From: Poseidonia sp.
GTDB taxonomy: Archaea; Thermoplasmatota; Poseidoniia; Poseidoniales; Poseidoniaceae
Length of the DNA: 64,000 bases
Assembly (NCBI GenBank): GCA_040261535.1
Contig: JBDQNU010000008.1
Coordinates: 8,322 to 72,321, forward strand
Direction of reading: 5' to 3'
Shown here: positions 14,380-51,444 of the stretch, piece after piece
How the letters are laid out: every line of letters starts with the position of its first letter
Numbering within the stretch: position 1 is the first letter of the stretch
Notes under the pieces: generated by a model
Told to the model about the DNA's origin: nothing
Databases searched by the model: none
The model's input: only the letters and a program-made list of their open reading frames with translations
Translations under genes and position numbers: made by a program

Positions 14380-16425
14380 TCAGCGTCGTTTTGGCTGCAA
14401 GGCATCGATGAGGTTCCGCACTGCGTCGGCCGTCACCATCACGGCATCACCTGCCAGGGTGCCGCCTTTGGGCAACGCCCTTGAGGCGAGCCAGATAAAG
14501 ACGGCAACAAACCAAGCAAAGAAAGCAAGCGAGAAGACATTGTTGAGGGTTACAATGCCAAATATCTCCGGAAGGTCAATTTTTGCGACGATCAAAACGG
14601 CGATGAGGACGCCCATGATCGACTCGCCGGCGATGAATCCGGCGCCGATGAGGACGCCTCTACTCTCCACTTCCTTCGCAGCTTCAAGAGCACGGGGTGA
14701 AGGTTCAGCCCTCAATACCCCGTCAACCCGAAGATGAGCGCTTCTCAAAAGCACATGCGAGATGATGCCACCGGCCATGATGGGGACGGAGAGGCCGAGT
14801 GGGAGGTAGATTCCAATGGCAACGCTCATCACCGGCATGTTGAGGCGAATCAGAGCCACAGCGATAGCAGCACCGAGGACGACCATTTGGATGTTGAGGT
14901 CGCCTCCAAAAGCGCCTTGGACGATGGCGCCAATCAATTCAGCCTGTGGAGCAAAGAGGGCCTTGGAACACGTAGGATCTCCGGGGAGTGGGTTCATTTG
15001 ACACGCTGTTTGTGAAATCCGGAAGGCATCGTGGAGCAGGGACAAGACGGGTCCAATCACCACGGCCCCGGTGAGGACCCCAATGATTTCCGCCGTCTGC
15101 TGCCGTTTTGGGGTCGCTCCAAGCATGTGGCCGGTTTTCAGGTCTTGCATAACATCGCCAGCGATGGCAGCACTTGAAGCGACGATAGCAGCGATCAGCA
15201 AGGTGGCGTACATCAAGTCTTGACGAGCCATCCCCAACATCAGGTCGCCAACGATATAGACCAAGCCGACGGTGAAGAGTAGGGTTGCGATGGTCATACC
15301 GGACACCGGTGAATTGGAGGAGCCGACAACCCCGGCGATGTATCCTGCAACCGCTGCGAAAAAGAAGGCGACAAAAGCGAGGAAGAGAGCGCCAGCAAGG
15401 GCGAGGACAAAGGATTCGGTTGCCCACCAATAGAAGAAGAACGTGAGGACGACCAACGCCGCACAGACCATGAACACGATGTTCATCGAAATGTCTTGCT
15501 CGGTTCGTGGGAGTGCAGCCTCGCTCTCTTCACTTTTTACGAAGGCCTTTGACAGACCGGTAATGATCGTTTTCCTCATCGACCAAAGGGTGTAGACGCC
15601 TCCGACCACCATGGCTCCCACGCCGACATACCGGATTTGCGTTGACCAAATGCTGTAAAATCCATCAACGAGAGAATCGGTTGCAGGCCAGCCATAGATG
15701 AGGCCGTACATGGGCACGAGAAGCCCAAACCCAAGCACACCACCAAAGAAGATGAACGATGCGATACGAATCCCTACGATGTAGCCGACGGAGAGGAGGG
15801 CGATGGAAAGATCCATTCCCGCATAGAGTCGGGTTGAAACAAACGAGAAGGCGCCTTCTACGGTGTGGTGCGTGACTTCAAAGCCCTTGACCATCAGACC
15901 GTACACGCCTCCAATAGCAAGTGCATAGAGAATGGCGAGTGCGCCTTCGCCCCCTTCTTCTCCGGCGACCAGGACCTCTCGGCAGGCGACGCCTTCGGGA
16001 TACGGGAGCGCTTCTTCTACGATGAAGAGACGACGCAGTGCGATGGTGAACATGGTGCCGAGCAACCCACCGAGGGTGGCGATGATCAGCGTCTCCATCC
16101 ACTGGATGCTCGTCCAAAGGCTCATGACCAGCAGGGCGGGAACCGTGAAAATCACGCCAGCAGCGAGGGATTCACCAGCAGAAGCCATGGTTTGAACGGC
16201 GTTGTTCTCGAGGATGGAGACGTCTTTGAACATCGAACGAAGAATGATCATCGACATGACCGCTGCCGGAATGCTGGCTGAAACCGTCATGCCCGCATAG
16301 AGTCCAAGGTAGGCATTTGCTGCCGTCATCAAAACGCCAAGGACGATTCCTACCCCGATGACTCGGCCCGTCAGTTCGAGCGGTGATTCATCCGCAGGGA
16401 TGTAAGGCTGGTGCGCACCGCTCAT
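14380..16425 (-). CDS. OPT-family oligopeptide transporter
   Basis: A 681-aa polytopic membrane protein. The N-terminus LTGRVIGVGIVLGVLMTAANAYLGLYAGMTVSASIPAAV and the later DLKTGHMLGATP are typical of the OPT superfamily. Confidence 0.85.
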   Translation of the reverse strand: MSGAHQPYIPADESPLELTGRVIGVGIVLGVLMTAANAYLGLYAGMTVSASIPAAVMSMIILRSMFKDVSILENNAVQTMASAGESLAAGVIFTVPALLVMSLWTSIQWMETLIIATLGGLLGTMFTIALRRLFIVEEALPYPEGVACREVLVAGEEGGEGALAILYALAIGGVYGLMVKGFEVTHHTVEGAFSFVSTRLYAGMDLSIALLSVGYIVGIRIASFIFFGGVLGFGLLVPMYGLIYGWPATDSLVDGFYSIWSTQIRYVGVGAMVVGGVYTLWSMRKTIITGLSKAFVKSEESEAALPRTEQDISMNIVFMVCAALVVLTFFFYWWATESFVLALAGALFLAFVAFFFAAVAGYIAGVVGSSNSPVSGMTIATLLFTVGLVYIVGDLMLGMARQDLMYATLLIAAIVASSAAIAGDVMQDLKTGHMLGATPKRQQTAEIIGVLTGAVVIGPVLSLLHDAFRISQTACQMNPLPGDPTCSKALFAPQAELIGAIVQGAFGGDLNIQMVVLGAAIAVALIRLNMPVMSVAIGIYLPLGLSVPIMAGGIISHVLLRSAHLRVDGVLRAEPSPRALEAAKEVESRGVLIGAGFIAGESIMGVLIAVLIVAKIDLPEIFGIVTLNNVFSLAFFAWFVAVFIWLASRALPKGGTLAGDAVMVTADAVRNLIDALQPKRR

Positions 16426-16578: not shown

Positions 16579-19467
16579 ATGACGACGGAATGGCACAACC
16601 TTTCTCCGGAAGACAGCATCGTTCAGCAAGACAGTTCCATGGAAGGAATATCCATGCAGGAAGTCCTCGCTCGAACGCAACGGTACGGCTTGAACAAACT
16701 CGCTGAACCGGAGAAAACGCCAGCGTTTCTGCGGTTTATATCCCAATACAACGACCCGTTAAATTACCTCCTTATCGGGGCGGCTTTGGTGGCTTTGGCC
16801 ATCCACCCTGATCAGCCCGGAGATGCGATTTTCATATTTATCGTGCTCACCGCCAATGCGTTTTTTGGTTTCTGGCAAGAAGGACAAGCGGAGCAAGCAA
16901 TGGATTCCTTGAAACAAATGTCCGTCTCAACATGCGTGGTCATTCGCGGAACGTTCGAAAGCGAAATTGCAACTTCTGAATTGGTTCCAGGCGATATCGT
17001 TTGTTTGGAGCAAGGCCTTAATGTCCCAGCAGACGTACGCATGATTCGCTCACTGCAGTGCAAAATCGACGAATCAGCACTGACCGGCGAGTCCCTTACG
17101 GTTCGCAAAACGATTGAGTCCTTGCCTCCGGAAACGGTCCTTGCGGAACGAACCAACATGGCGTACATGGGCACGACCGTATCGTCCGGTCGAGGTTTAG
17201 GTTTGGTGATCGGCACAGGAATGAACACGGAATTGGGAAAAATCGCTCAAAATCTTGCCGAAAGCACCACGCCGAAAACTCCGCTTGAACTGAAACTTGA
17301 GAGCCTCGGTCGTTTTCTGGGTTTCATCGCCCTTGTCGTCGCCGTTCTGTTGGTCAGTCTGAACTTGATCGTTTCTTACGGTCGGCCCGGTGTTGACCTC
17401 AAGGAGGTCGCCGTGCAGCAATTCATTGTCGCCATCGCTATCTTTGTCGCGATTGTACCCGAAGGCCTTCCGATCATCTTGGTCATCACGCTCTCCCTTG
17501 GAATGCGCAACATGGCCCGTCACAAAGCCATCATCCGTCGCATGAAAGCGGTTGAAACGCTCGGCTCAACCACCGTTATCTGCTCCGACAAAACGGGAAC
17601 ACTGACGAAGAACCAGATGACGGTTCGCCAAATTTTCACCCTCGACGAAGACTTTGGCGTCTCAGGCGAGGGCTTCAAACCCGATGGAAATTTGGTTCGT
17701 CACGGCGTCGAACTCTCTGATGACGATCTTCAAGCCCACCAGTCCGATATGGGTTTTCGCTTGCTCAGTGCTTGTTTGTCACTCTGCCACAATTCAACCA
17801 TTGCCAAAACAGATGGGCTCTGGCAAGCCATCGGTGACCCCACGGATTCGGCCTGCGCCGTTGCTGGTTGGAAAATCAACGGAGATGTGAAGAAATTCGC
17901 GCATCGCCACCCGAGGATCAATGAATTCTTTTTCGATTCAAACCGGAAACGCATGAGCGTTCTCCATGAATACCAAGGAAACCGTTGGGTGTTCTCCAAG
18001 GGCAGCGTAGAAGGCTACGATGAGTTGATGACCTCGAAAATCGTCAACAACGAAGTGGTGCCCTTGACCGATGACGACCGTGCCTCGATTCGGCAAATGA
18101 ACCAATCCATGGGCGGGAAAGCCATGCGTGTCATCGGTTTGTTTGCTCGTCCTTTCGGTAAAGACGAAGATACGAACGACGTGAAAACGGTTGAATCGAA
18201 TTTGGCTTTCCTTGGGTTGATCGGCATCATGGACCCGCCTCGCCCTGAAGTGAAAGACGCGATTGCAACCTGTCAACGAGCCGGCATCAAGGTGAAAATG
18301 ATCACCGGTGACCAGCAAATGACGGCTGCCGCTATCGGCAAAGAATTGGATATTGAATCCGGCACACTGGGTGCACTCGACGGGCAAAGCCTTACCGACA
18401 TGTCGGACGAAGAGCTGGTCAATGTATCGGCCAACGTTTCAATTTACGCTCGCGTAACCCCGGACCAAAAAATGCGCATTGTTTCATCGCTTCAAGAGCA
18501 AGGCGAAATCGTTGCCATGACCGGTGACGGTGTGAACGATGCACCTGCACTTTCAGGCGCAAACATTGGTATCGCCATGGGCATATCCGGTACGGACGTT
18601 GCGAAAGACGCTGCTGACATGGTTTTGCAGGATGATAATTTTGCAAACATTGTTCATGCCGTGGAGGAAGGTCGCAAAATCTACCAGAACATTCGCAATT
18701 TTGTTCGCTACCAGGTCTCTACCAACGTGGCCGCCGTCTTGCTCCTGATCTTGGCCACCATTCTTTTCGGGCCCGAATCCATCCCGTTAACAGCAACCCA
18801 GATTCTTGTGATCAACATCTTGATGGACGGCCCTCCAGCGGTTGCGTTGGGGGTTGAAAAGAAACACGGGAACGTCATGAACCGACCGCCGAGACCGGTT
18901 GACGAAAATCTACCAAACGGAAGAGACATCTCCTTGATTTTCTACCTCGGCATCGTCATGGTCACGGGCACCCTCGCCATCTTTTACCTCGCTGGCGGAG
19001 GTTTGGCAGAATGCGAGATTCTGCCGACAGAAACCGCTACCACCGCCTTTGATGTCGCTGCCTGCAACGCAGGGGATGTTGAGGAATTGAACAAATGGCA
19101 GGTTTACGCGGACGGTCATTTTGCTCATGCGCAAACGATGACCTTCTCGGTGTTCATCGTCTTCCAATTGTTCAACGTTCTCAATTGCCGATCAAACGAC
19201 CAATCCGTTTTCGAGTTGGGTTTGTTTTCAAACCGAGCCATTAACCTCGCCTTGCTGATTTCAGGTGGCTTGTTGTTCTTCTTCGTCCAACTGGCGGATG
19301 CTTCCATCCCGCTTGTTGGTATTCAGGTGGGCAACTTGCTCTCGACGACCACCCTTTCTTCTAGCGATTGGACCGTCGTGGTGCTCGTCGCCTCCGCCGT
19401 CTTCATCATCGAGGAATTTCGAAAACTGCTCGTAAAATCGAAATTTTTTGCCGTTCGAACCTCATGA
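16579..19467 (+). CDS. cation-transporting P-type ATPase, type IIA-like (probably Ca2+)
   Basis: TGES, VPEGLP, CSDKTGTLT, MITGD and TGDGVNDAPAL motifs are present. Length is 962 aa. Confidence 0.85.
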   Translation: MTTEWHNLSPEDSIVQQDSSMEGISMQEVLARTQRYGLNKLAEPEKTPAFLRFISQYNDPLNYLLIGAALVALAIHPDQPGDAIFIFIVLTANAFFGFWQEGQAEQAMDSLKQMSVSTCVVIRGTFESEIATSELVPGDIVCLEQGLNVPADVRMIRSLQCKIDESALTGESLTVRKTIESLPPETVLAERTNMAYMGTTVSSGRGLGLVIGTGMNTELGKIAQNLAESTTPKTPLELKLESLGRFLGFIALVVAVLLVSLNLIVSYGRPGVDLKEVAVQQFIVAIAIFVAIVPEGLPIILVITLSLGMRNMARHKAIIRRMKAVETLGSTTVICSDKTGTLTKNQMTVRQIFTLDEDFGVSGEGFKPDGNLVRHGVELSDDDLQAHQSDMGFRLLSACLSLCHNSTIAKTDGLWQAIGDPTDSACAVAGWKINGDVKKFAHRHPRINEFFFDSNRKRMSVLHEYQGNRWVFSKGSVEGYDELMTSKIVNNEVVPLTDDDRASIRQMNQSMGGKAMRVIGLFARPFGKDEDTNDVKTVESNLAFLGLIGIMDPPRPEVKDAIATCQRAGIKVKMITGDQQMTAAAIGKELDIESGTLGALDGQSLTDMSDEELVNVSANVSIYARVTPDQKMRIVSSLQEQGEIVAMTGDGVNDAPALSGANIGIAMGISGTDVAKDAADMVLQDDNFANIVHAVEEGRKIYQNIRNFVRYQVSTNVAAVLLLILATILFGPESIPLTATQILVINILMDGPPAVALGVEKKHGNVMNRPPRPVDENLPNGRDISLIFYLGIVMVTGTLAIFYLAGGGLAECEILPTETATTAFDVAACNAGDVEELNKWQVYADGHFAHAQTMTFSVFIVFQLFNVLNCRSNDQSVFELGLFSNRAINLALLISGGLLFFFVQLADASIPLVGIQVGNLLSTTTLSSSDWTVVVLVASAVFIIEEFRKLLVKSKFFAVRTS

Positions 19468-41336: not shown

Positions 41337-43370
41337 ATGGAGGACCTCGTTGCGCTCTTGCGCCAGGATATTCGCGAAGGCATGCCCGAAGTCCTGCCTC
41401 CTCCCCAACCATTGGACGAGACGGTGGACCATGCGCCAAGTCGAAGGCAGATTCTCACTCCAAGCGAAAAGAAACTCTCCTTGATGAATGCCCTGCGCTA
41501 CATTCCTGAACAATTCCATGAAACCCTCCTTCCCGAATTTTTGGAGGAGTTGAACACCTTCGGAAGGGTCCTCATGCGTCGGTTCCGACCCACTTCATTA
41601 CCGATGCGCGCTTATCCCCTTGAAGCGTATCCTGCGAAATCCAAACAAGCTGCAGCCATTATGTTGATGATCCAAAACAACCTCGATCCTGCCGTTGCAC
41701 AATTTCCCCACGAACTCATCACCTACGGTGGAAACGGCTCTGTTTTCCAAAACTGGGTCCAATACCGACTGACGATGAAATACCTCTCCGAGATGACCGA
41801 CGAACAAACCTTGGTGATGTATTCGGGCCACCCGATGGGGCTCTTTCCGTCCAACAAAGATGCACCTCGTGTGGTGGTCACGAACGGGATGGTGATCCCC
41901 AATTCTTCCAAGCCCGAGGATTACGAGCGCATGAACGCCCTCGGCGTTACCCAATACGGGCAGATGACGGCAGGTTCGTACATGTACATCGGTCCACAAG
42001 GCATCGTTCACGGAACCACAATCACCTTGCTCAACGCAGCGCGCTTGCATCTTGACCTTCCCGAAGGCGATGACTTAGCGGGCGTCACGTTTGTGACGAG
42101 CGGCTTGGGAGGCATGTCCGGTGCTCAGGCCAAAGCCGCAACGATTGCCGGGGCAGCATGCATCATTGCAGAGTCAAATGCACACGCGGCACACAAACGC
42201 CACGAACAAGGTTGGTTGACAGATGTAACGGATGACGTGGATGCTGCCATCGACATGATGTTGAACGCATCTCGCGAGGGCGATGCTATTTCCATTGGCT
42301 TCATCGGAAACATCGTGGATCTTTGGGAACGCTTGGTGCATCGTGACGTCAAGGTTGACCTCGGTAGCGACCAAACCAGCCTCCACAATCCGTATCAGGG
42401 TGGCTATTTTCCAGTTGGGAGAACCTACGACGAGTGTGTCGCCATGATGTCATCGGACCCTGAAACCTTCAAATCTGAAATTCAGTCCACCCTCCGACGC
42501 CATGCGGAAGCGGTCAACTTCATGGTTGCGAAAGGAATGTACTTTTGGGATTACGGTAACGCATTCTTGCTCGAAGCCTCTCGTGCAGGTGCCGATGTTG
42601 TGAACCACGATGGAAGCTTCCGCTACCCCTCGTATGTTGAGGATATTATGGGCCCGATCTGCTTTGACTACGGATTTGGCCCGTACCGTTGGGTCTGCAC
42701 AAGCGGCAAACCTGAGGACCTCACCCGCACGGATGCCATTGCAGCTGAGGTTCTGAAGCGCATGCTCGCCAAGGCAACTCCGGACGTGAAGCAGCAAATT
42801 CGTGACAATCTGCAATGGATTGAACGGGCTGGAGACAACAACTTGGTCGTCGGCAGCCAAGCGAGAATCCTGTACGCCGATGATGTCGGAAGGCGAGAGA
42901 TTGCGCTTGCCATGAACCGGGCGATTGCACGTGGGGAGATTGGGCCCGTGGTGTTGGGGCGTGACCATCACGATGTATCGGGTACCGACAGCCCCTACAG
43001 GGAAACAGCGAATATCCGAGACGGTTCAATGTTCACAGCGGATATGGCCGTGCAGAACGTCATTGGTGATGCGTTTCGCGGGGCCACATGGGTCAGCCTC
43101 CACAACGGTGGAGGTGTCGGATGGGGTGAAGTCATCAACGGTGGATTCGGCATGCTGCTTGACGGGAGTGATGAAGCCGAGCAACGTTTGCAGAGCATGC
43201 TTCATTGGGACGTCAACAACGGCGTTGCCCGAAGAGCATGGGCTCGTAATTCCGGGGCTCGTTCAGCAAGTATTCGGGCCATGGAACTTGAAACGAACCT
43301 GAAAATCACCTTGCCCCATATCGTTGAGGAAAGTCTGTTGCAACATTATTTTGGAGGTGGCCAACCATGA
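41337..43370 (+). CDS. hutU: urocanate hydratase (long, ~677-aa form)
   Basis: ALRYIP, ITYGGNGSVFQNW, SGLGGMSGAQ and GRDHHD are present. ATGA overlap with hutH. Confidence 0.9.
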   Translation: MEDLVALLRQDIREGMPEVLPPPQPLDETVDHAPSRRQILTPSEKKLSLMNALRYIPEQFHETLLPEFLEELNTFGRVLMRRFRPTSLPMRAYPLEAYPAKSKQAAAIMLMIQNNLDPAVAQFPHELITYGGNGSVFQNWVQYRLTMKYLSEMTDEQTLVMYSGHPMGLFPSNKDAPRVVVTNGMVIPNSSKPEDYERMNALGVTQYGQMTAGSYMYIGPQGIVHGTTITLLNAARLHLDLPEGDDLAGVTFVTSGLGGMSGAQAKAATIAGAACIIAESNAHAAHKRHEQGWLTDVTDDVDAAIDMMLNASREGDAISIGFIGNIVDLWERLVHRDVKVDLGSDQTSLHNPYQGGYFPVGRTYDECVAMMSSDPETFKSEIQSTLRRHAEAVNFMVAKGMYFWDYGNAFLLEASRAGADVVNHDGSFRYPSYVEDIMGPICFDYGFGPYRWVCTSGKPEDLTRTDAIAAEVLKRMLAKATPDVKQQIRDNLQWIERAGDNNLVVGSQARILYADDVGRREIALAMNRAIARGEIGPVVLGRDHHDVSGTDSPYRETANIRDGSMFTADMAVQNVIGDAFRGATWVSLHNGGGVGWGEVINGGFGMLLDGSDEAEQRLQSMLHWDVNNGVARRAWARNSGARSASIRAMELETNLKITLPHIVEESLLQHYFGGGQP

Positions 43371-44917
43371 CTGAATCCGTGGTCGTCCTCGACGGCACGA
43401 CGCTTTCGCTCCCGGAGGTCTTGTCTGTTGCCGATGGAAAAGCGACCGTGACGGTATCCGAAAGTGCTTGGGCCGGCATCAACGCTGCGCGAGCCGTGGT
43501 TGACCGTATTGTTACTTCTGGAGAAACGGTTTACGGCATCAACACCGGGTTTGGCGCCCTCGTACGCGAACGAATATCGCCTGAAGATCTTGCTCAACTC
43601 CAAGTCAATCTCATCCGTTCCCACGCCACGGCCCTCGGAGAGCCAATGGATGCACGTTCGGTCCGAGCGATGATGGTCGTCCGTTTGAATTCCCTGTGCA
43701 AAGGGCACTCTGGAATATCGCCCGTATGCATTCAACAACTCGCGGCCTTCCTCAATCAGAACATTCACCCATTCATTCCAAGAATCGGTAGCTTGGGTGC
43801 AAGCGGGGATTTGGCCCCGTTGTCCCACCTCGCCCTAGCCTTGATGGGCGAGGGGTACATTTTGTCCGATGGAGGGAGGGTTCCGACGCGAGAAGTGTTG
43901 CTCCAAAAAGGATTGATTCCAGTTGAATTCACGGCAAAAGACGGGCTTTCCCTCATCAATGGCACCAGTCAGATGACGGCGTTTGCAACACTCGCCCAAC
44001 AACAATTGGCCAACGTGTTGGTGTTCGCGGACCTCATCTTATCGGCCTCCATGGACGCACGAATGTGCAGTCTCACCCCTTCCGACCCGCTCATCCATCA
44101 GGCTCGCCCACACCCTGGCCAAGTCTTGGTTGCTGAACGGTTACGGGCCATTCTCCACGGCTCTGAAATTCTAACCGGGCATGCAGATTGCGACCGAGTC
44201 CAAGATCCGTACTCGTTCCGTTGTGCACCTCAAGTCCACGGGGCGGTGTACGAAGCCTACCAGCGGCTCACCGAGATGCTCAACATCGAATTGAACAGCG
44301 CAACGGACAATCCGCTTATCTTCCCCAATCCGACCAATCCAGGTCCACATGAAGTCAAATCGCAGGGCAATTTCCACGGTGAAATCGTGGCGTTGGCCTG
44401 TGACGGCATGAGCCTGGCCATGTTTGAGTTGGGCTCAATCTCGGAACGCAGGATCGATCAAATGTTGGACGCCTCGAGAAGCGAATTGCCGGCCTTCCTT
44501 GCCTTGAACAGCGGTCTCGAATCGGGTTTGATGATCGTCCAGTACGTAGCCGGTGCCGCTCTCGCTGAACTCCACGGGCAAGCCAGTCCCCGTTCGGCAT
44601 TCTCGACATCAACCTCCGCAGGCCAAGAAGACCACGTGAGCATGGGGGCAACGGCAGCGTGGAACTTGCTTTCGGGCGTCAGAAGGCTGGCCGAAGTGCT
44701 CGCATGCGAACTCTTAGTTGCCTGCGAGGCGTTGGAGCATGCCTCTTTCCCCTCGTCCCCTCATATCGAAGGGTTGCGACGTCTCGTCCGAACCGTGGCA
44801 CCTGCTCTCCATGGCGACCGTTCGACATCGGATGAGCTGATGAAACTCGCTGAAGAATTGCTTGCAGGTCGGTGGCTCTCTCGGTTGGAAGCGGAGCATG
44901 GGCGTCTACCGCGTTGA
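43367..44917 (+). CDS. hutH: histidine ammonia-lyase
   Basis: YGINTGFG, the MIO-forming GSLGASGDLAPLSH, NGTSQM and FHGE motifs are present. Confidence 0.9.
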   Translation: MTESVVVLDGTTLSLPEVLSVADGKATVTVSESAWAGINAARAVVDRIVTSGETVYGINTGFGALVRERISPEDLAQLQVNLIRSHATALGEPMDARSVRAMMVVRLNSLCKGHSGISPVCIQQLAAFLNQNIHPFIPRIGSLGASGDLAPLSHLALALMGEGYILSDGGRVPTREVLLQKGLIPVEFTAKDGLSLINGTSQMTAFATLAQQQLANVLVFADLILSASMDARMCSLTPSDPLIHQARPHPGQVLVAERLRAILHGSEILTGHADCDRVQDPYSFRCAPQVHGAVYEAYQRLTEMLNIELNSATDNPLIFPNPTNPGPHEVKSQGNFHGEIVALACDGMSLAMFELGSISERRIDQMLDASRSELPAFLALNSGLESGLMIVQYVAGAALAELHGQASPRSAFSTSTSAGQEDHVSMGATAAWNLLSGVRRLAEVLACELLVACEALEHASFPSSPHIEGLRRLVRTVAPALHGDRSTSDELMKLAEELLAGRWLSRLEAEHGRLPR

Positions 44918-45805
44918 TATTGCGTGCTCCACGAATTCTTTCGTCGCTTCGAGGTCAATCAAGTTCATCAGCCTGTATCCGTGGAGTTCGCGTTCCGTGA
45001 CCGTAAAGGAGGATTCGTGTGCTTCAAGACGCCGCAAGACATCGATTGCACCGGTAATTCGCTGTTCGGTCTGAGCATACAATGCATGCGCTCTATCCAA
45101 GTCCTCGAAGGCGAGTGCAGGCTCAAGTTCACTCAAATCGAAGCCCATGCGCTTCCACTGAAGCATCCGTTTTTGCAACAGGCTTACCGAGAACCCCTTC
45201 CGAGGGAGCGAGACGAGATGAACAACGGTTGGAGGATGGGGCTCGGGCGAGGCGATTTCATCAGAGGTTGTGGCATCCATCGTTGATGGTTCCTCTTCAC
45301 CATCACTTGCTGGCGTAGCCTCAGGCGCCTCCTTGTCCAATACTCCGTTTTGATCAGGTTGCTTGGTGTTCGGCAAAAGCGGCGCTAGCGTGCGAATTCG
45401 TGCCCACAATCGATGCTCAAAAGCAAGGGGTTCAACCGGGAAAACAACGGCAAAACCAATCCTTCTTGAAAAGGAATCCAGCCGCTGCAATGCATCGAGA
45501 ACGTTCCGTTCGCCGCTGTTTTGAAGCATCCATTGGAGTGCATCGATCACGACGATGTCGCCTTCAAGAGGCGAATGGCGATGGAGATGGGCAAGCACTT
45601 CAGCGGCATCGGGACGTACGGCAGTTTCCTCTTCCTGCTCAGAAATCCACCACAATCCTCCTCGGTTGGTCGAGACATGTCGAAGCAGTTGGCGCATCGG
45701 CAGGCGACTGTAACAATGCAGCGAACCGTCTTGACCGTCTTGAGATTCTATGGCGGGATACACGATGTTCGGGTCCACTGAATCAACCGTGAACAACCCC
45801 CGCAT
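44906..45805 (-). CDS. DUF835-like domain protein with acidic linker and unassigned C-terminal helical domain
   Basis: The N-terminal half (CYSRLPMRQL...LWWIS...AVRPD...VVIDALQWML...VLDALQRLDS...AVVFPVEP) fits my recollection of the archaeal DUF835 pattern. The 3' end overlaps hutH by 12 nt, convergently. Confidence 0.5.
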   Translation of the reverse strand: MRGLFTVDSVDPNIVYPAIESQDGQDGSLHCYSRLPMRQLLRHVSTNRGGLWWISEQEEETAVRPDAAEVLAHLHRHSPLEGDIVVIDALQWMLQNSGERNVLDALQRLDSFSRRIGFAVVFPVEPLAFEHRLWARIRTLAPLLPNTKQPDQNGVLDKEAPEATPASDGEEEPSTMDATTSDEIASPEPHPPTVVHLVSLPRKGFSVSLLQKRMLQWKRMGFDLSELEPALAFEDLDRAHALYAQTEQRITGAIDVLRRLEAHESSFTVTERELHGYRLMNLIDLEATKEFVEHAISTR

Positions 45806-45881
45806 CCCGTCTCCCCGTTCATTGGTGAACCATGGCGACCTATGGAATTACTCCTCAAGAACAGGCGATAATCCATCAAGC

Positions 45882-45889
45882 ATTATATT
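45882..45889 (+). promoter_or_regulatory. TATA-like box upstream of the EF-hand protein gene
   Basis: attatatt is centred about 35 nt upstream of ATG 45921, which would give a very short leader. Assigned by position only. Confidence 0.3.
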
Positions 45890-45920
45890 GTCCGTCGTCC
45901 TGCAAGTTAACGGTGGAAGC

Positions 45921-47750
45921 ATGGCAGACGACGAAAACGAAAACGTGCCCATGGCAGAGTGCGGTGCATGTCGGACGGTAATTCCCCTCGATTCTGCCGA
46001 GTGTCCCGAGTGTAAAACCAAATTTTCCGGCGTCTCTGACGAGGCTCTGGGGGAGTGCGGTGCTTGTCAAAAACTCGTCCCCCTTGATTCAACGCGATGT
46101 CCCGAATGCGGTGTCGTCTTTGTTGCTGACGACGTCGTGGACATTCTGCGGACATGGATTCACACCACCGGCGTTAACATTCGTAAATTGTTCGAAAAAT
46201 TCGATGAAAACGGCGATGGGACCATTGATTCAGAGGAATTGCGCAAGGGCCTTCTTGGATTGAATCTCGCCGACTTACCTCCCTCGCAAGTTGACCGATT
46301 GGTTGCCGAAATCGATGCAGACGGCAACGGCGTCATCGATCTCAACGAATTTGACTCAATTTTAATGGGGGATTCTGAGGCAGAGCACGAGCCGGAACAT
46401 GATGACGAGGGGGCCGAAGATTCAACCGTCCAGGAGGTGGAAGATAGCTCCGACGATGATATTGGAGAAGAGGATCACGTATCCGATGAATCCGAAGATG
46501 TCGCCGAAGACGAAGAAGACGAATCACGCGAGGAAGAGGCGTTGGCTGCTGAAAGTGACGAAGAAGATGCATCCTCAGAGGATGATGACGTTGATTCGGA
46601 GGTTGAAGAGCAGGATGCCGAGACGGATGACTCCCCAATGGACGACGCCGATGAAGTCGAGGAAGACGAGGTTGCGCCCGTACACCCGCTCCAGGCGCTT
46701 GCTGACATGATGGACGAACATGAGATTTCAGCGCAACGGATGTTCAACGAACTTGATGCAGACGGAAACGGCTTGATTTCGCTCAGCGAGCTCGAGAGTT
46801 CTCTCGTGGAAAAATACGGTGACGTGTTGGCAATAGAGAATCTTCAGGAACTTTTGGAAGGCGTTGACTCCGATGGCGATGGTATGATCGATATCACCGA
46901 ATTCATTGAATCCATGGAGAATCTCGACGATCATGAAGAGGTTGTCAAAGAAGAGAAGCCGCCGAAACAATTCCCCACTGTCTGGCAGAAACGCATGATG
47001 TCCAAGACTTGGAACGACAACGTGTGGCCTATTGTGCACGTGGGCTTTGGAATTCTCATCGTATTGGTTTTGGTCAACGCCCTCGTTGGACCGGTTGACG
47101 GTTCTGGAGGGAGGGTCGTCTTCCAAGAGATGGAAAGTCCCATAAGGCCTACACCGGAAAATTTCGTTGATGGAAAAACCCTTTACCCCTGCGATAATGA
47201 ATATCAAGACGGTGGTTGCAAAAACTCACTCACTCCCCTTGCTGGTGAAAACGGAGCATCATCGATGCCGAAGGGCTTCTACTGGGACGGAATTTTGTTC
47301 CTTCTGCTATCCGTTGCAGGATTGTGTGCCTCGTTATTTGTACACCTCGTGAAGGCGCCTGGCTGGCGTGAGCGGGTCAAAGCCATGAAGGAAGTTGCTG
47401 ACGATAAAGCAGATGCTGCTGACAGCGACGATGGGCACGATTCAGACGATGAAGACAACGGCGCGGACGAGGATGAAGACCTTGGTGAGACGGAAGAGGA
47501 AGTCGACGACGATGGTGAAGAATACAACGAAGGCGACGTGGAAGAAAACGGTGACGATGAAGAAGTTGATGAATCTCAAGGCGAAGGAGACAGCATCGAT
47601 ATCGGCTCCCATGTAGGGTTGGTCCTTGAAGATGAAGAGGTCTACGGAACCATCCTTGAGTTTGACGACGAAGAAGGAACGGTCACCATTGAAGAGGACG
47701 GAACCGGAGATCTCGTAACGGGATACCAGGAAGACATGTTCATTGAGTGA
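45921..47750 (+). CDS. membrane protein with two zinc ribbons, four EF-hands, poly-acidic linkers, two TM helices and an acidic C-terminal tail
   Basis: The ribbons are CGACRTVIPLDSAECPEC and CGACQKLVPLDSTRCPEC. The canonical 12-residue EF loops are DENGDGTIDSEE, DADGNGVIDLNE, DADGNGLISLSE and DSDGDGMIDITE. The TM helices are VWPIVHVGFGILIVLVLVNALVG and ILFLLLSVAGLCASLFVHLV. Start trimmed to ATG 45921, outside the divergent gene. Confidence 0.75.
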   Translation: MADDENENVPMAECGACRTVIPLDSAECPECKTKFSGVSDEALGECGACQKLVPLDSTRCPECGVVFVADDVVDILRTWIHTTGVNIRKLFEKFDENGDGTIDSEELRKGLLGLNLADLPPSQVDRLVAEIDADGNGVIDLNEFDSILMGDSEAEHEPEHDDEGAEDSTVQEVEDSSDDDIGEEDHVSDESEDVAEDEEDESREEEALAAESDEEDASSEDDDVDSEVEEQDAETDDSPMDDADEVEEDEVAPVHPLQALADMMDEHEISAQRMFNELDADGNGLISLSELESSLVEKYGDVLAIENLQELLEGVDSDGDGMIDITEFIESMENLDDHEEVVKEEKPPKQFPTVWQKRMMSKTWNDNVWPIVHVGFGILIVLVLVNALVGPVDGSGGRVVFQEMESPIRPTPENFVDGKTLYPCDNEYQDGGCKNSLTPLAGENGASSMPKGFYWDGILFLLLSVAGLCASLFVHLVKAPGWRERVKAMKEVADDKADAADSDDGHDSDDEDNGADEDEDLGETEEEVDDDGEEYNEGDVEENGDDEEVDESQGEGDSIDIGSHVGLVLEDEEVYGTILEFDDEEGTVTIEEDGTGDLVTGYQEDMFIE

Positions 47751-47754
47751 GTCC

Positions 47755-48120
47755 ATGACCGAGGCTGACCCGATTCAACGCTTCTCCGGCATCGCCACCT
47801 GCCCCGTGTGCGGTTGCCTTGACAGGAAAGGTGTTTATCGCTGTCCGGAATGCGGTACGTTCCATTCAGGGGCAATTTTGGATGAACGAGAGGCGCCCCC
47901 GCCTGCACCCGTAGAGGTGGAACCCGATGCTCCAATCGACCCGAGTATCTACTCGTTAGGCCCAAACGCCGCCATCCCGGAGGAGACGTTTGACGAATCG
48001 GATCATGTTCGGTCGTGGGATGGGGGCAGCACCGATTTTTCGTTTGATGAAGAGGATGAGCCCCCGGTTCACAAAGAGGAACCTGCCATGCCTGAACCCG
48101 AAACCGGCAATGAAGGTTAA
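47755..48120 (+). CDS. hypothetical acidic protein with N-terminal zinc ribbon
   Basis: CPVCGC-x9-CPECG is followed by a Pro/Glu/Asp-rich tail. It begins 5 nt after the stop of the EF-hand gene. Confidence 0.5.
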   Translation: MTEADPIQRFSGIATCPVCGCLDRKGVYRCPECGTFHSGAILDEREAPPPAPVEVEPDAPIDPSIYSLGPNAAIPEETFDESDHVRSWDGGSTDFSFDEEDEPPVHKEEPAMPEPETGNEG

Positions 48121-48198: not shown

Positions 48199-48275
48199 TG
48201 GTGGGCTCGGAGAGAATCGAACTCTCGATCTTTGCCATGTCAAGGCAACGTCATAAACCCCTAGACCACGAGCCC
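48199..48275 (-). tRNA. tRNA-Val (anticodon GAC), CCA encoded
   Basis: The reverse complement reads GGGCTCGTGGTCTAGGGGTTTATGACGTTGCCTTGACATGGCAAAGATCGAGAGTTCGATTCTCTCCGAGCCCACCA. Hand folding gives a 7-bp acceptor stem (GGGCTCG/CGAGCCC), a 5-bp anticodon stem (TTGCC/GGCAA) with loop TTGACAT, and a T arm GAGAG-TTCGATT-CTCTC. Confidence 0.9.
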
Positions 48276-48747: not shown

Positions 48748-49068
48748 CTAGACTTGTCCAATTTTCTCAGAAAAATCGCCAACGTCGAACATACCAACAA
48801 GCGGAGGGCCTAGCAAAAACCGTTCAATGCCACCATCAACTTCGTCAAGCTCCTGGCGAATCTTCTCCGATATGGTTTTCCAATCTTGGGCCGTGGCGTA
48901 CACCGATTGAACGAGGATCATCGTGTCGTTGTCGAGTGCCGTCCCCATCCAAGCGGCGATGCATCCGTTTTGTCGACGTTTGAATTCTTGCCGTGCAAGG
49001 ACAAGTCGGCGGAGCTTTGCACTGCTGCCGTCTTTCGCGGAACACACCACCGTCTCAATCACGTTCAT
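48748..49068 (-). CDS. ABM/Dabb-fold-like small protein (putative monooxygenase-like)
   Basis: The 106-aa product has a pattern (MNVIETVV...ILVQSVYATAQDWKTI) reminiscent of antibiotic-biosynthesis-monooxygenase domains. It lies downstream of hutI on the same strand. Confidence 0.4.
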   Translation of the reverse strand: MNVIETVVCSAKDGSSAKLRRLVLARQEFKRRQNGCIAAWMGTALDNDTMILVQSVYATAQDWKTISEKIRQELDEVDGGIERFLLGPPLVGMFDVGDFSEKIGQV

Positions 49069-49137
49069 GAATATCACTTATTTGTTTTTGAACCGAAACA
49101 CCTTATTCTAATTTTTTCAAAAGATAAAAGTTGTAGT

Positions 49138-50385
49138 TCAATGGGCGATGAATTGGCCGTTCAAGACCGTCGCTGAAAAGGGACTCCCGGTTGGCCTCAA
49201 ACAAACGGACTCCCAATGCTCCGTTTGAAGAATGTTGAGATTCGCAACCGCTCCTTCTTTGATTTGCCCGTGAACCAAACCCGTTGGATGTGGACTTGTT
49301 TTAGCAGCATTGACCGTGACCGCTCGAAGGGCATCAAGCGGATGAACGCCGCACCGTTGAACCATAAGAGACATCATGAAGGGCAGGCTCAACGTCTGGC
49401 AGTTTGGGTTGAAATCGGTTGCCAGCGTAAAGGGTACGTTTTCGCTCTGAATCTCGTTCATGTTGGGCCATTGGTCGCCCATTCCGTAGGGTGTCCCCGG
49501 TAGAAAGCCGGTCATGACGCCCCGGTCCCTCATGGTACGCCTCACCTCAAGCGGCGTGCAGTACGCGTGATCTGCCGACTCAACGCCTAGATCAGCTGCG
49601 AGGGCTCCGCCACCTCCGTCTTTGAACTCATCAACATGCATTCGTAAGGACATGCCCTGGTTCCGCGCCTCGGTTAAAATGCGCTCTGAAGACTCAACAT
49701 CAAACCAACCCGGTTCACAGAACACATCGGCGGACCGAGCAATGTTTTGTTCAACAACGGCGGGTAGTTGTTCAGACACCAGTTCGTCAACGTATCCAAC
49801 CATGGTTGCTCCAACGGGTACATCGTGAGCTCCCATCCACGTTGGGTCGATTGTTGGTACATGGGCAACGTCCCCGAGCGTTTTCATGACATCAAGCAGT
49901 CGAAGTTCGGTTTCAGTATCCAGTCCGTATCCACTCTTTGCCTCGACGTGGGTGGTCCCTGTTGACAATGCTTCACGAAGGCGAACATAACCGACCTGGA
50001 ACAAGGATTCGTTGCTCGATGCGCGTGTAGCCCGGACGGTGGACTGGATGCCTCCCCCGTTTCTGGCGATGTCGGCATAGGTCATGCCTTCCCGTCGCAA
50101 GCGAACTTCAGGTGATCGGTCGCCCGCCCACAAAAGATGGGTATGCGCGTCGATGAGGCCCGGTATGACGGCGGCTCCGCCAAGATCGTGTATTTTCAAC
50201 GTTGAGTCTGCATCGCTTTCGGCTCCACTGTATTCGTCAAGCAGGTCTGATGAATCTTGGATTGAAACAATCTGATTGCCTTCTATGATAATTCCCATTC
50301 CAACAGGATAAATCTGGTCTTCATAGAGTGGGGTTCGAGCATCAAAGTGGACAATAGGGCCAGCATTCAACAAGACCCGCCGCAC
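49138..50385 (-). CDS. hutI: imidazolonepropionase
   Basis: GLIDAHTHL, EAKSGYGL and DHAY motifs of the amidohydrolase HutI are present. ORF 49138..50673 was trimmed to GTG 50385 (MRRVLLNAGPIV...), giving 415 aa and removing the overlap with kae1. Confidence 0.85.
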   Translation of the reverse strand: MRRVLLNAGPIVHFDARTPLYEDQIYPVGMGIIIEGNQIVSIQDSSDLLDEYSGAESDADSTLKIHDLGGAAVIPGLIDAHTHLLWAGDRSPEVRLRREGMTYADIARNGGGIQSTVRATRASSNESLFQVGYVRLREALSTGTTHVEAKSGYGLDTETELRLLDVMKTLGDVAHVPTIDPTWMGAHDVPVGATMVGYVDELVSEQLPAVVEQNIARSADVFCEPGWFDVESSERILTEARNQGMSLRMHVDEFKDGGGGALAADLGVESADHAYCTPLEVRRTMRDRGVMTGFLPGTPYGMGDQWPNMNEIQSENVPFTLATDFNPNCQTLSLPFMMSLMVQRCGVHPLDALRAVTVNAAKTSPHPTGLVHGQIKEGAVANLNILQTEHWESVCLRPTGSPFSATVLNGQFIAH

Positions 50386-50436
50386 AACTACGGGTGTGAC
50401 AAGAGGGTTGAAGAACAATCGCTCGTACCCGCCACC

Positions 50437-51444
50437 ATGCCTCAGTGGACGCTTGGCATTGAAACAACTGCGCACACGCTCTCGTTTGGGCTGGTTGATG
50501 CCGATGGTACGCCTTATCCTGCCGCATCGGACACGCTCCGACCTGATGAAGGTGGAATTCATCCGAGGGAGGCAGCCGATCATCACAAAGACGTTGCATC
50601 CGAATTGTTTGCAAAGGTCCTGGATACGAACAATCTCACTCCATCCGATATCGGTGCAGTCGCTTATTCGCAAGGACCCGGACTTGGCCCTTGTTTGAGG
50701 GTTGGCGCTGCAATCGCACGCGGTCTAGCAACCAAGATGGACGTCCCCCTCATTGGTGTCAATCATTGCGTGGCCCACATTGAAATCGGACGCCAGCAAT
50801 GCGGATGCGACGACCCCATTCTCCTGTATGTCTCTGGAGGAAACACCCAAGTTATCGCTCGGTTGCAAGGCCGCTATCGCGTACTTGGGGAAACGCTGGA
50901 TATCGGCATCGGCAACATGCTTGATAAATTTGCACGGAATCAAGGCATTCCCTTCCCCGGAGGGCCCAAAATTGAGCAACTTGCGAATCAATACTTGGAA
51001 CGAACGCCTGAACCAAGCATGGAAGGATTGCAACTTCCGTACGCTGTTCGAGGAATGGATCTTGCTTTTTCTGGCTTGTTGACTGCAGCACAACGCCTCG
51101 TTGACAACGGAGCACCCTTGGACGCCGTGTGCTGGTCCCTTCAGGAGCATGCTTTTGCTTCCTGCGTGGAAGTCGCCGAGCGGGCGATGGCGCACACGGG
51201 GAAAGCCGAGCTGTTGCTTGGCGGCGGTGTTGCTTGCAACCAGCGGATTCGCACGATGTGTGAGGAAATGGCCACGGATAGAGAGGGAGCCTCGTTTGCC
51301 CCACCGCGGATGTATTGCATCGACAACGGATCGATGATCGCCCTCCTCGGGTACATTGAACTCAACCATCGAACCACGGAACTTCAGGGAAGCGCCATCG
51401 ACCAGTACCTTCGTACGGACCAGACGCCCATCGTGTGGTCTTGA
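50437..51444 (+). CDS. kae1: tRNA N6-adenosine threonylcarbamoyltransferase Kae1
   Basis: LGIETTAHT, GIHPREAADHH, GPGLGPCLRVG, VNHCVAHI and YVSGGNTQ are present. Start trimmed to ATG 50437. There is no fused Bud32 domain. Confidence 0.9.
   Translation: MPQWTLGIETTAHTLSFGLVDADGTPYPAASDTLRPDEGGIHPREAADHHKDVASELFAKVLDTNNLTPSDIGAVAYSQGPGLGPCLRVGAAIARGLATKMDVPLIGVNHCVAHIEIGRQQCGCDDPILLYVSGGNTQVIARLQGRYRVLGETLDIGIGNMLDKFARNQGIPFPGGPKIEQLANQYLERTPEPSMEGLQLPYAVRGMDLAFSGLLTAAQRLVDNGAPLDAVCWSLQEHAFASCVEVAERAMAHTGKAELLLGGGVACNQRIRTMCEEMATDREGASFAPPRMYCIDNGSMIALLGYIELNHRTTELQGSAIDQYLRTDQTPIVWS

Follow-up and report, generated by a model that had tools for sequence, protein, structure and literature searches.

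Domain architecture and genomic context of a predicted Poseidoniales-specific membrane protein with calmodulin-like EF-hand lobes

Calmodulin-like EF-hand dyads are thought to have come to eukaryotes from bacteria, and Ca2+ signalling in archaea is, to our knowledge, essentially undescribed. Marine Group II (MGII) archaea are uncultured, rank among the most abundant planktonic archaea, and carry many lineage-specific genes to which no function has been assigned. Here we describe gene B, the middle one of three genes (A, B and C) on a 64,000-nucleotide (nt) stretch of Poseidonia sp. contig JBDQNU010000008.1 (assembly GCA_040261535.1, positions 8,322 to 72,321 of the forward strand; hereafter the window). 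In the protein encoded by this gene, two EF lobes are inserted between zinc ribbons and a transmembrane (TM) hairpin, with a polyanionic disordered linker between the lobes. Its sequence is that of a putative integral membrane protein, specific to Poseidoniales, with both termini predicted to lie in the cytoplasm.

Among bacteria, calmodulin-like EF dyads have been described in actinobacteria, cyanobacteria, proteobacteria and verrucomicrobia, where the available part of the survey gives 7TM, Tic110-like, haem-oxygenase, NADPH-oxidase and similar modules as fusion partners and reads the fusions as Ca2+-flux-dependent regulators (Schaffer et al. 2020, PMC7016017). For MGII, lineage-specific Ca-binding families (fam02857, fam00852, fam02101 (MGIIa), fam01838 (MGIIb)) have been reported in a single sentence, which says nothing on architecture, topology, partners or mechanism (Meheust et al. 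2022, PMC9258230). Gene B probably belongs among these families, and the novelty first seen in it is weakened to that extent; the architecture itself is undescribed there, and no description of this architecture, its topology, operon partner or variable EF content was found in the literature. As for gene A, Galperin et al. (2018, PMC5847659) regard the DUF835 domain found in it as a KaiC-like domain, now inactivated, that archaeal response regulators use for output.

Domain architecture of gene B

Gene B and its modules are located as follows (aa, amino acids; AF2, AlphaFold2; pLDDT, predicted local distance difference test).

45921..47750, + strand: gene B, 609 aa, membrane-anchored and hyper-acidic, with calmodulin-like EF lobes; predicted topology N-in/C-in
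45960..46109, + strand: double zinc ribbon, aa 14–63, four CxxC pairs
46134..46364, + strand: EF lobe 1, aa 72–148, loops DENGDGTIDSEE and DADGNGVIDLNE; Pfam EF-hand_7; pLDDT ~80
46371..46685, + strand: acidic disordered linker 1, aa 151–255, 105 aa with 57 Asp/Glu (54%); pLDDT <40
46686..46931, + strand: EF lobe 2, aa 256–337, loops DADGNGLISLSE and DSDGDGMIDITE; EF-hand_7; pLDDT ~80
46971..47021, + strand: basic juxtamembrane segment FPTVWQKRMMSKTWNDN, aa 351–367, nearly invariant
47022..47090, + strand: TM1, aa 368–390 by hydropathy (AF2 helix 362–389); P370 and N386 invariant family-wide
47091..47276, + strand: predicted outward-facing loop, aa 391–452, 62 aa, motifs VDGSGG, YPCD..Q..GC.NSLTP and SMP.G; Cys pair C424/C433
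47277..47426, + strand: TM2 (aa 453–477, D456 invariant) and basic cytoplasmic helix, reaching ~aa 502 (WRERVKAMKE)
47427..47588, + strand: acidic disordered linker 2, aa 503–556; pLDDT <50
47589..47747, + strand: C-terminal Tudor/KOW-like SH3-fold small beta-barrel, aa 557–609

Four stretches of the protein match Pfam EF-hand_1 (PF00036; 80 bits vs. a cut-off of 25.4) and two pairs match EF-hand_7 (PF13499; 76 bits vs. a cut-off of 30), with loops at 46203–46238, 46314–46349, 46755–46790 and 46866–46901; a regular-expression scan of six frames found no canonical EF loops elsewhere in real genes of the window. The loops are 12 residues long, carry the ligand set, and are helix-flanked and paired, being modelled by AF2 as helix-loop-helix pairs (pLDDT ~80). 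In a sample of 65 orthologues (56–92% identity), positions 1, 3, 5 and 12 of all four loops are D/N/E in 65/65 sequences, Gly6 is kept in 62–65 of them, and position 8 is Ile/Val/Leu; the first-pass annotation had staked its reading on such conservation of the ligands in orthologues. A profile search against the PDB matched both lobes to calmodulin and centrin (E 1e-16 to 8e-21), and Foldseek, run on a full-length AF2 model of B built on the 65-sequence alignment, returned matches only to calmodulin and centrin, spanning both lobes.

N-terminal to the lobes, a match to Pfam DZR (PF12773) covers aa 14–64 at 25.7 bits, slightly below the cut-off of 27.3; relatives score 27.3–33.6 bits, the divergent members lying above the cut-off at 27.6–33.6 bits, and all eight zinc-ribbon cysteines (8/8) are invariant in the 65 orthologues. 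At family level the sequences point to a double zinc ribbon, and for the window sequence taken singly the assignment is marginal. The two linkers show a different kind of conservation, i.e., their composition is kept and their sequence drifts. Linker 1 ranges over the orthologues from 94 to 169 aa with 40–57% Asp/Glu, linker 2 (56 aa with 33 Asp/Glu in the window protein) ranges from 38 to 66 aa with 49–84% Asp/Glu, and both hold almost no Lys/Arg. In total gene B encodes 182 acidic and 32 basic residues, giving 29.9% Asp+Glu vs. 6.5–17% in the 23 other window open reading frames (ORFs) taken as genes and 23% in gene C. The first-pass annotation had recognised the ribbons, the EF pairs, the two TM helices, the Cys pair, the acidic stretches and the beta-rich C-terminal module of the 609-aa ORF, all of which the present analysis bears out; the acidity of its poly-Asp/Glu linker stands as well, and the length it gave (~120 aa) comes down to 105 aa.

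In the full-length AF2 model the EF lobes are confident (~80), the ribbons moderately confident and the linkers disordered, with a pLDDT of ~86 for the barrel. Since calmodulin dominated the full-length Foldseek search, aa 345–609 were re-modelled to expose the barrel, which emerged with 4–5 strands (pLDDT 88–92), the outward-facing loop still being unmodelled (AF2 confidence <50 in both models). TM2 was predicted as one long helix (aa 451–502) that would run ~25 residues into the cytoplasm. Foldseek matched the barrel to SMN, TDRD3, PHF1 Tudor, Agenet and NusG/Spt5 KOW domains (E 3e-3 to 3e-2), with target-normalised template-modelling scores (TM-scores) of 0.7–0.8 and root-mean-square deviations of 1.1–1.9 Å for SMN, TDRD3, PHF1 Tudor and NusG/Spt5 KOW. 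In Pfam, membership of a specific Tudor, KOW or SH3 family could not be assigned to the barrel, as only sub-threshold matches were returned, i.e., to the RimP C-terminal SH3 domain (E 2e-4, 21.8 bits vs. 26.3), the PTM/DIR17 Tudor domain and LSM12. The model presents the C-terminal module as a small SH3-fold barrel with no assignable family.

Near-invariance among the 65 orthologues extends beyond the ribbons and the lobes to a pre-TM1 motif (FPxxWQKRMMSKxWND), both TM helices, C424/C433, a post-TM2 motif (WRARxKAMKE) and the last ~50 residues. Strong purifying selection acts on every folded module of the family. For the hairpin, an N-in/C-in topology is favoured, in which the EF lobes would face the cytoplasm, because (i) the membrane-adjacent basic residues sit N-terminal of TM1 and C-terminal of TM2 (FPTVWQKRMMSKTWNDN being one of three net-positive patches in the whole of B), (ii) the highly acidic 365-aa N-terminal region is not preceded by a signal peptide, (iii) the four CxxC zinc-ribbon motifs (8 Cys) fit a reducing compartment, and (iv) the inter-TM loop holds a lone invariant Cys pair that is best read as a disulfide. 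C424 and C433 would then probably staple the outward loop.

Family spread and variable EF-hand content

More than 120 full-length homologues of B (56–99% identity, 575–669 aa) were found in independent JGI, ENA, NCBI and Logan assemblies, one of them carrying the name 'EF-hand domain-containing protein [Poseidonia sp.]'. When one genome per GTDB species was scanned, 117 genomes were seen to encode B, all of them Poseidoniales/Poseidoniaceae (Thermoplasmatota; Poseidoniia; Poseidoniales) or generically labelled archaeal metagenome-assembled genomes (MAGs), except for two short contigs in bacterial MAGs. Since these independent homologues and species genomes share one architecture, a chimeric assembly of gene B, which had been raised at the outset as a possible flaw, was rejected.

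The two exceptional contigs (L052 of 4.9 kb and L057 of 5.2 kb) carry an archaeal hutH-A-B-C block inside MAGs labelled Salipiger bermudensis and Rhodobiaceae bacterium, a placement that is most likely a binning error. In MAG SAT1329 the locus occurs on two contigs, each with an A homologue upstream of B; one (L020) also has hutU and hutH upstream and the other (L013) has C and hutI downstream, which speaks for mixed strains in the bin rather than for paralogues.

Divergent members of the family (28–45% identity) keep the N-terminal zinc ribbons, the acidic linkers, the hairpin and the C-terminal barrel. In contrast, the number of EF-loop matches per family representative varies from 0 to about 7, with single-lobe forms being well supported. 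EF lobe 1 is absent from P0270 (representing a 16-member cluster) and EF lobe 2 from P0265, P0260 and P0327, while P0242 and P0250 have additional EF pairs and P0245 has an EF pair located in the C-terminal linker. The family-wide invariants are densest in the outward loop (VDGxGG, Y422, C424, C433-x-N-S and S-M-P-x-G-x-x-x-D456), to which TM1 adds P370 and N386. Judged from these alignments, the conserved core of the family consists of the zinc ribbons, the hairpin with its outward loop and the barrel, into which the EF lobes would be a modular, usually present regulatory insertion. The first-pass annotation had read the module as Ca2+-responsive, yet Ca2+ sensing does not define it, the EF loops being a variable accessory of the family.

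A HMMER search with aa 340–609 of B against 1.84 billion representatives returned only 94 matches, all belonging to one family save some low-complexity matches and P0281 and P0287, two proteins with a doubled module, and it yielded no distant homologue that would hint at the function of the TM/C-terminal half. P0281 (L086 1541..3460) and P0287 (L087 930..2849) are basic, otherwise unrelated-looking proteins of 609–639 aa without zinc ribbons or EF-hands, each carrying two tandem TM / Cys-loop (YPCD..GC.NS.TP..SMP.G.Y.D) / TM modules and each with an unannotated 211-aa gene 5 nt downstream. Their make-up suggests that hairpin and loop form an independent module, one that may self-pair. In another family member, P0257 (429 aa), the zinc ribbons are replaced by an N-terminus of non-archaeal appearance, first Gly/Ser/Ala-rich and then Lys/Arg-rich and helical, and the barrel is absent; the gene may have been mis-called, be chimeric, or have been transferred into another organism.

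The locus around gene B

The three genes occupy 44906..45805 (A, 299 aa), 45921..47750 (B) and 47755..48120 (C, 121 aa), and the remaining features of the locus are the following.

44906..45805, − strand: gene A, 299 aa, divergent from B across a spacer of 115 bp
45840..45851, no strand assigned: semi-conserved element CTATGGAATTAC, 35–46 nt upstream of the gene A start codon, from the spacer alignment of 33 loci
45873..45887, + strand: promoter element CCATCAAGCATTATA, resembling a B recognition element (BRE)/TATA box, 34–48 nt upstream of the B ATG
45912..45916, + strand: Shine-Dalgarno-like GGTGG, 5–9 nt upstream of the B ATG; GGTG core conserved in 33 loci
47755..48120, + strand: gene C, 121 aa, N-terminal zinc ribbon and acidic tail, probably co-transcribed with B
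48199..48275, − strand: tRNA-Val (GAC), directly downstream; 3′ boundary of the B-C unit in this lineage

A longer form of gene B, starting at 45750 and overlapping the 5′ end of A, was rejected because the orthologues start at MADDE/MSDEE. When 33 orthologous A-B spacers were aligned, the CCATCAAGCATTATA element upstream of B was at least 80% conserved. The CTATGGAATTAC element, whose conservation is limited to the closer relatives, lies in the mirror position to the B promoter and may be a promoter element of gene A.

Gene C starts 4 nt behind the stop codon of B, and the corresponding gap measures 1–7 nt in 44/63 loci (mode 4), with values outside this range being mostly due to mis-picked start codons. 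In the 80 loci of the closer clade examined by tblastn (the sample, together with divergent loci with enough flank, on which all synteny statements below are based), C follows B in 64, and the remaining 16 mostly end at or shortly past B. A C homologue also follows B in the seven divergent loci with downstream flank, where the next gene differs. Both the short gaps and the persistence of C behind B in these divergent loci strongly indicate that B and C form an operon. The window protein C carries a CPVCG..YRCPECGTFH ribbon (CPxCG..G.YRCPECGTFH across homologues) and conserved motifs in its acidic tail (ER.APP, DPS.YS and W.GGSTDF.F); its 293 homologues are all unannotated and all without a Pfam domain.

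Gene A combines an N-terminal DUF835 / inactivated KaiC-like domain (aa ~27–138) with an acidic linker and a helical C-terminal domain. Its match to Pfam DUF835 (PF05763) is marginal for the single sequence (31.1 bits vs. a cut-off of 33.1), and a DUF835 match was obtained for 22/22 family members tested (best E 3e-17). The family profile weakly matched the archaellum protein FlaH (4yds, E 1e-3) among solved structures, where the single gene A sequence found no match, and the family alignment holds no Walker A / GxxxxGK[ST] motif. Taken together, the profile matches place gene A in the DUF835 / inactivated KaiC family. The most conserved part of A is a C-terminal helical motif, HLVSLPxxGF..RMLQWKRMGFDLSxLEPA.

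Gene A stands divergently upstream of B in 80/80 loci, as well as in the six divergent loci with upstream flank. Nevertheless, this synteny was rejected as proof of a three-gene module, since the neighbouring histidine-utilisation genes, i.e., urocanase (hutU, 41337..43370) and histidine ammonia-lyase (hutH, 43367..44917), keep their place as faithfully as A does, in the divergent clade as well. The insert A-B-C-tRNA-Val splits these genes from an imidazolonepropionase-like gene (hutI, 49138..50673, − strand) that is equally conserved in the 80 loci, and the arrangement is conserved across Poseidoniaceae. The divergent clade has the order FTCD-hutU-hutH-A-B-C, followed by an AlaX-like gene in place of tRNA-Val and hutI. 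The downstream synteny thus breaks after C while hutU and hutH stay, and the link between A and B is only suggestive.

Several proposals of the first-pass annotation can be settled against these data. The DUF835 assignment of A, with its divergent orientation and 115-bp spacer, is borne out, as is the synteny of the three genes in relatives (80/80 for A, 64/80 for C, with the order kept in divergent loci). The zinc-ribbon gene does lie directly downstream of B, at a gap of 4 nt. Of the proposed compact three-gene Ca2+ module, the B-C operon is strongly indicated, whereas the conserved order does not by itself establish a three-gene functional unit, hutU and hutH being equally syntenic. A P-type ATPase at 16579..19467 (+ strand) had been classed as type IIA and taken to make Ca2+ export plausible; its best matches are indeed to type-IIA Ca models (PMR1/SERCA-type), below both equivalog cut-offs, and with a distance of 26 kb (29 kb start to start) it is unlinked and adds little.

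Some further genes of the window were noted in passing. The hutI-like ORF (511 aa) has a TTG start that probably lies too far upstream, its orthologues in L084 and L088 measuring 431–432 aa. Between tRNA-Val and hutI lies a small conserved 109-aa gene (48748..49077, − strand) with a weak match to ABM (antibiotic biosynthesis monooxygenase-like; E 1.2e-3, below cut-off); a 105–108-aa gene occupies the same position in L084 and L088, and the L084 product is visibly similar. The divergent neighbour of the P2A-like ATPase is an OPT-family oligopeptide transporter (14380..16425, − strand).

Functional readings and comparison with known systems

We favour the reading that B is a cytoplasm-facing, membrane-tethered Ca2+ sensor or transducer, to which we give a probability of about 0.45; that B binds Ca2+ on the cytoplasmic side is likelier than this overall reading and, from the conserved ligands and the predicted topology, very probable. 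In the proposed mechanism, the EF lobes would bind cytosolic Ca2+, and Ca2+ loading would alter how the lobes engage other parts of B or partner proteins, the candidate targets being the co-transcribed protein C, possibly A, and the two basic juxtamembrane segments. In this way, intracellular Ca2+ could be coupled to the action of the hairpin and its loop at the membrane, be it sensing of an external cue, ion conduction, or a coupling in the reverse direction.

A number of observations weigh against this sensor or transducer role. Since the EF count varies from 0 to about 7, Ca2+ sensing would be an add-on and not the core function, and P0294 (L088 3636..4919), encoded in a hutH-DUF835-B-C locus, has ribbons, hairpin and barrel with zero EF loops. 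This protein, whose linker is rich in Pro/Glu and whose inter-TM loop differs, is known from a single contig, where the assembly may have collapsed in the repetitive acidic region. Moreover, the link between A and B may be genome collinearity, hutU and hutH being as syntenic as A. Finally, the inter-domain packing of B is not confident in AF2 (predicted TM-score 0.23–0.26), nor is the loop structure, and the basic juxtamembrane segments have only modest helical amphipathicity (hydrophobic moment, muH, 0.25–0.40) and may be mere positive-inside topology signals. As calmodulin targets these segments were kept as a weak inference: WQKRMMSKTW before TM1 fits the 1-5-10 hydrophobic spacing with a muH of only 0.25, and the post-TM2 segment has a muH of 0.28–0.40.

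An alternative is that B is an ion channel or pore, whose hairpins oligomerise and are gated by the attached lobes as free calmodulin gates SK channels, or whose pore conducts Ca2+. The hairpin and loop are indeed the most conserved part family-wide, and invariant polar residues occur within the membrane or at its edge (N386 and D456 throughout; H373 and H475 in the close clade). When the alignment is read directly, the small or polar residues D456, S464, G467 and H475 line one side of TM2, which extends as a long cytoplasmic helix, and the tandem TM-loop-TM pair in P0281/P0287 suggests that the modules associate. However, no sequence or fold match to channel families was obtained over the TM region (Pfam, NCBIfam, PDB sequences and Foldseek), direct reading of aa 391–452 revealed no selectivity motifs of the GMN, TxGYG or DxxE type, the 62-aa loop does not come out of the models as a re-entrant pore loop (pLDDT <50), and some lineages (P0326, P0327, P0329 and P0294) have a quite different loop. 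We therefore consider a channel unlikely.

Similarly unlikely is a reading of B as a membrane-proximal polyanionic cation buffer or scaffold, in which ~160 Asp/Glu-rich linker residues would hold Ca2+/Mg2+ with low affinity and high capacity in a calsequestrin-like manner, or serve as an entropic spacer, with the folded domains acting only as anchors. Such a role would suit the Asp+Glu content of B, which is roughly twice that of the next-highest window ORF (17%) apart from gene C, the kept linker composition (40–84% Asp/Glu, almost no Lys/Arg, with drifting sequence and length), and the acidity of the partner C. Yet five near-invariant folded modules speak for specific interactions, the high affinity of canonical EF-hand sites is typical of sensors, and B is a single-copy gene with its own promoter and no sign of the abundance that a buffer needs; moreover, the conserved outward-facing loop would be left unexplained. 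If B were merely an acidic scaffold, its significance would be modest.

We regard as quite unlikely, too, an elaborate form of the sensor reading, in which the hairpin is an oligomeric receptor or channel gated in cis by its tethered calmodulin-like lobes, with output to C and A. Were it true, archaea would have a class of self-contained devices for Ca2+ signalling with B as its founding member, and the first defined Ca2+-signalling pathway in archaea would lie in a very abundant ocean group.

It appears improbable that A, B and C belong functionally to the hut cluster, e.g., with B as a membrane sensor of an external amino-acid or peptide cue and A as a regulator of hutU, hutH and hutI. The order hutU-hutH-A(−)-B-C holds in all 80 closer-clade loci and in the divergent clade with its other downstream neighbours, A and hutH are convergent with 3′ ends overlapping by 12 nt, and one source labels the A orthologue P0225 an ArsR-family regulator. 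Nevertheless, a DNA-binding domain was not detected in A (Pfam, PDB profile search), B and C hold no stretch that looks like an amino-acid-binding domain, the three genes have promoters and an orientation of their own, and collinearity inside one order is weak evidence.

An inverted topology is highly improbable; in it the EF lobes and linkers would lie on the cell exterior, be constantly loaded by the 10 mM Ca2+ of seawater and have a structural role at the cell surface. Many prokaryotic EF-hand or DxDxDG proteins are extracellular, and the loop Cys pair could in principle be cytoplasmic. However, export would have to carry ~365 residues, more than a third of which are acidic, through the membrane without a signal peptide, the basic residues cluster N- and C-terminal of the hairpin, the four CxxC zinc-ribbon motifs suit a reducing cytoplasm, and the 2-Cys loop is better explained by an extracellular disulfide. 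A defence-island reading was rejected, as A, B and C gave no matches to anti-phage defence systems in PADLOC at E up to 0.01.

At present B stands as a domain-architecture finding, one that would make archaeal Ca2+ signalling biochemically testable. Being order-wide and conserved, with an operon partner and a KaiC-like neighbour, it offers an entry point to the question of whether intracellular Ca2+ acts as a messenger in archaea. Three of the component families are unannotated, i.e., the TM/Cys-loop module, protein C and the C-terminal domain of A.

Set beside known systems, the hairpin has a conceptual resemblance only to SK/KCNQ, CorA, MCU and KcsA, in that B is a 2-TM unit beside EF lobes and basic juxtamembrane helices; unlike calmodulin-gated or 2-TM channels, to which it has no homology, B has a 62-aa Cys-pair loop and no selectivity-filter motif, and it does not qualify as a known 2-TM cation channel (KcsA-type, CorA, MCU or MscL). 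From calsequestrin, which is built of thioredoxin-fold domains whose surfaces are acidic and which end in an acidic tail, B differs in having no thioredoxin-like domain and in carrying its acidity in disordered linkers. Gene A resembles DUF835/inactivated KaiC output domains in its DUF835 match, its distant FlaH match and its lack of Walker A, and departs from the DUF835 outputs of response regulators in having its own helical C-terminal domain and no receiver (REC) domain.

Like the bacterial EF fusions in the available part of their survey, B joins calmodulin-like EF dyads to membrane-associated modules, which there are signalling modules; the archaeal order of ribbons, EF lobes, 2-TM hairpin and Tudor-like barrel was not found among the fusions in that part (PMC7016017). 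With calmodulin and centrin B shares two lobes, each made of a pair of canonical EF loops, 12 residues long, in which the ligand set is complete. Calmodulin proper, i.e., a free protein of ~148 aa with four EF-hands and a short central helix, is nevertheless a different thing from B with its 105-aa linker and its fusions: in place of the central helix, B and its orthologues have a polyanionic disordered linker of 94–169 aa, and the lobes, whose number varies by lineage, are embedded between a double zinc ribbon and a 2-TM hairpin. The EF lobes are in this comparison bona fide members of the EF-hand family, and what is new is the membrane architecture around a putative EF-hand Ca2+ sensor.

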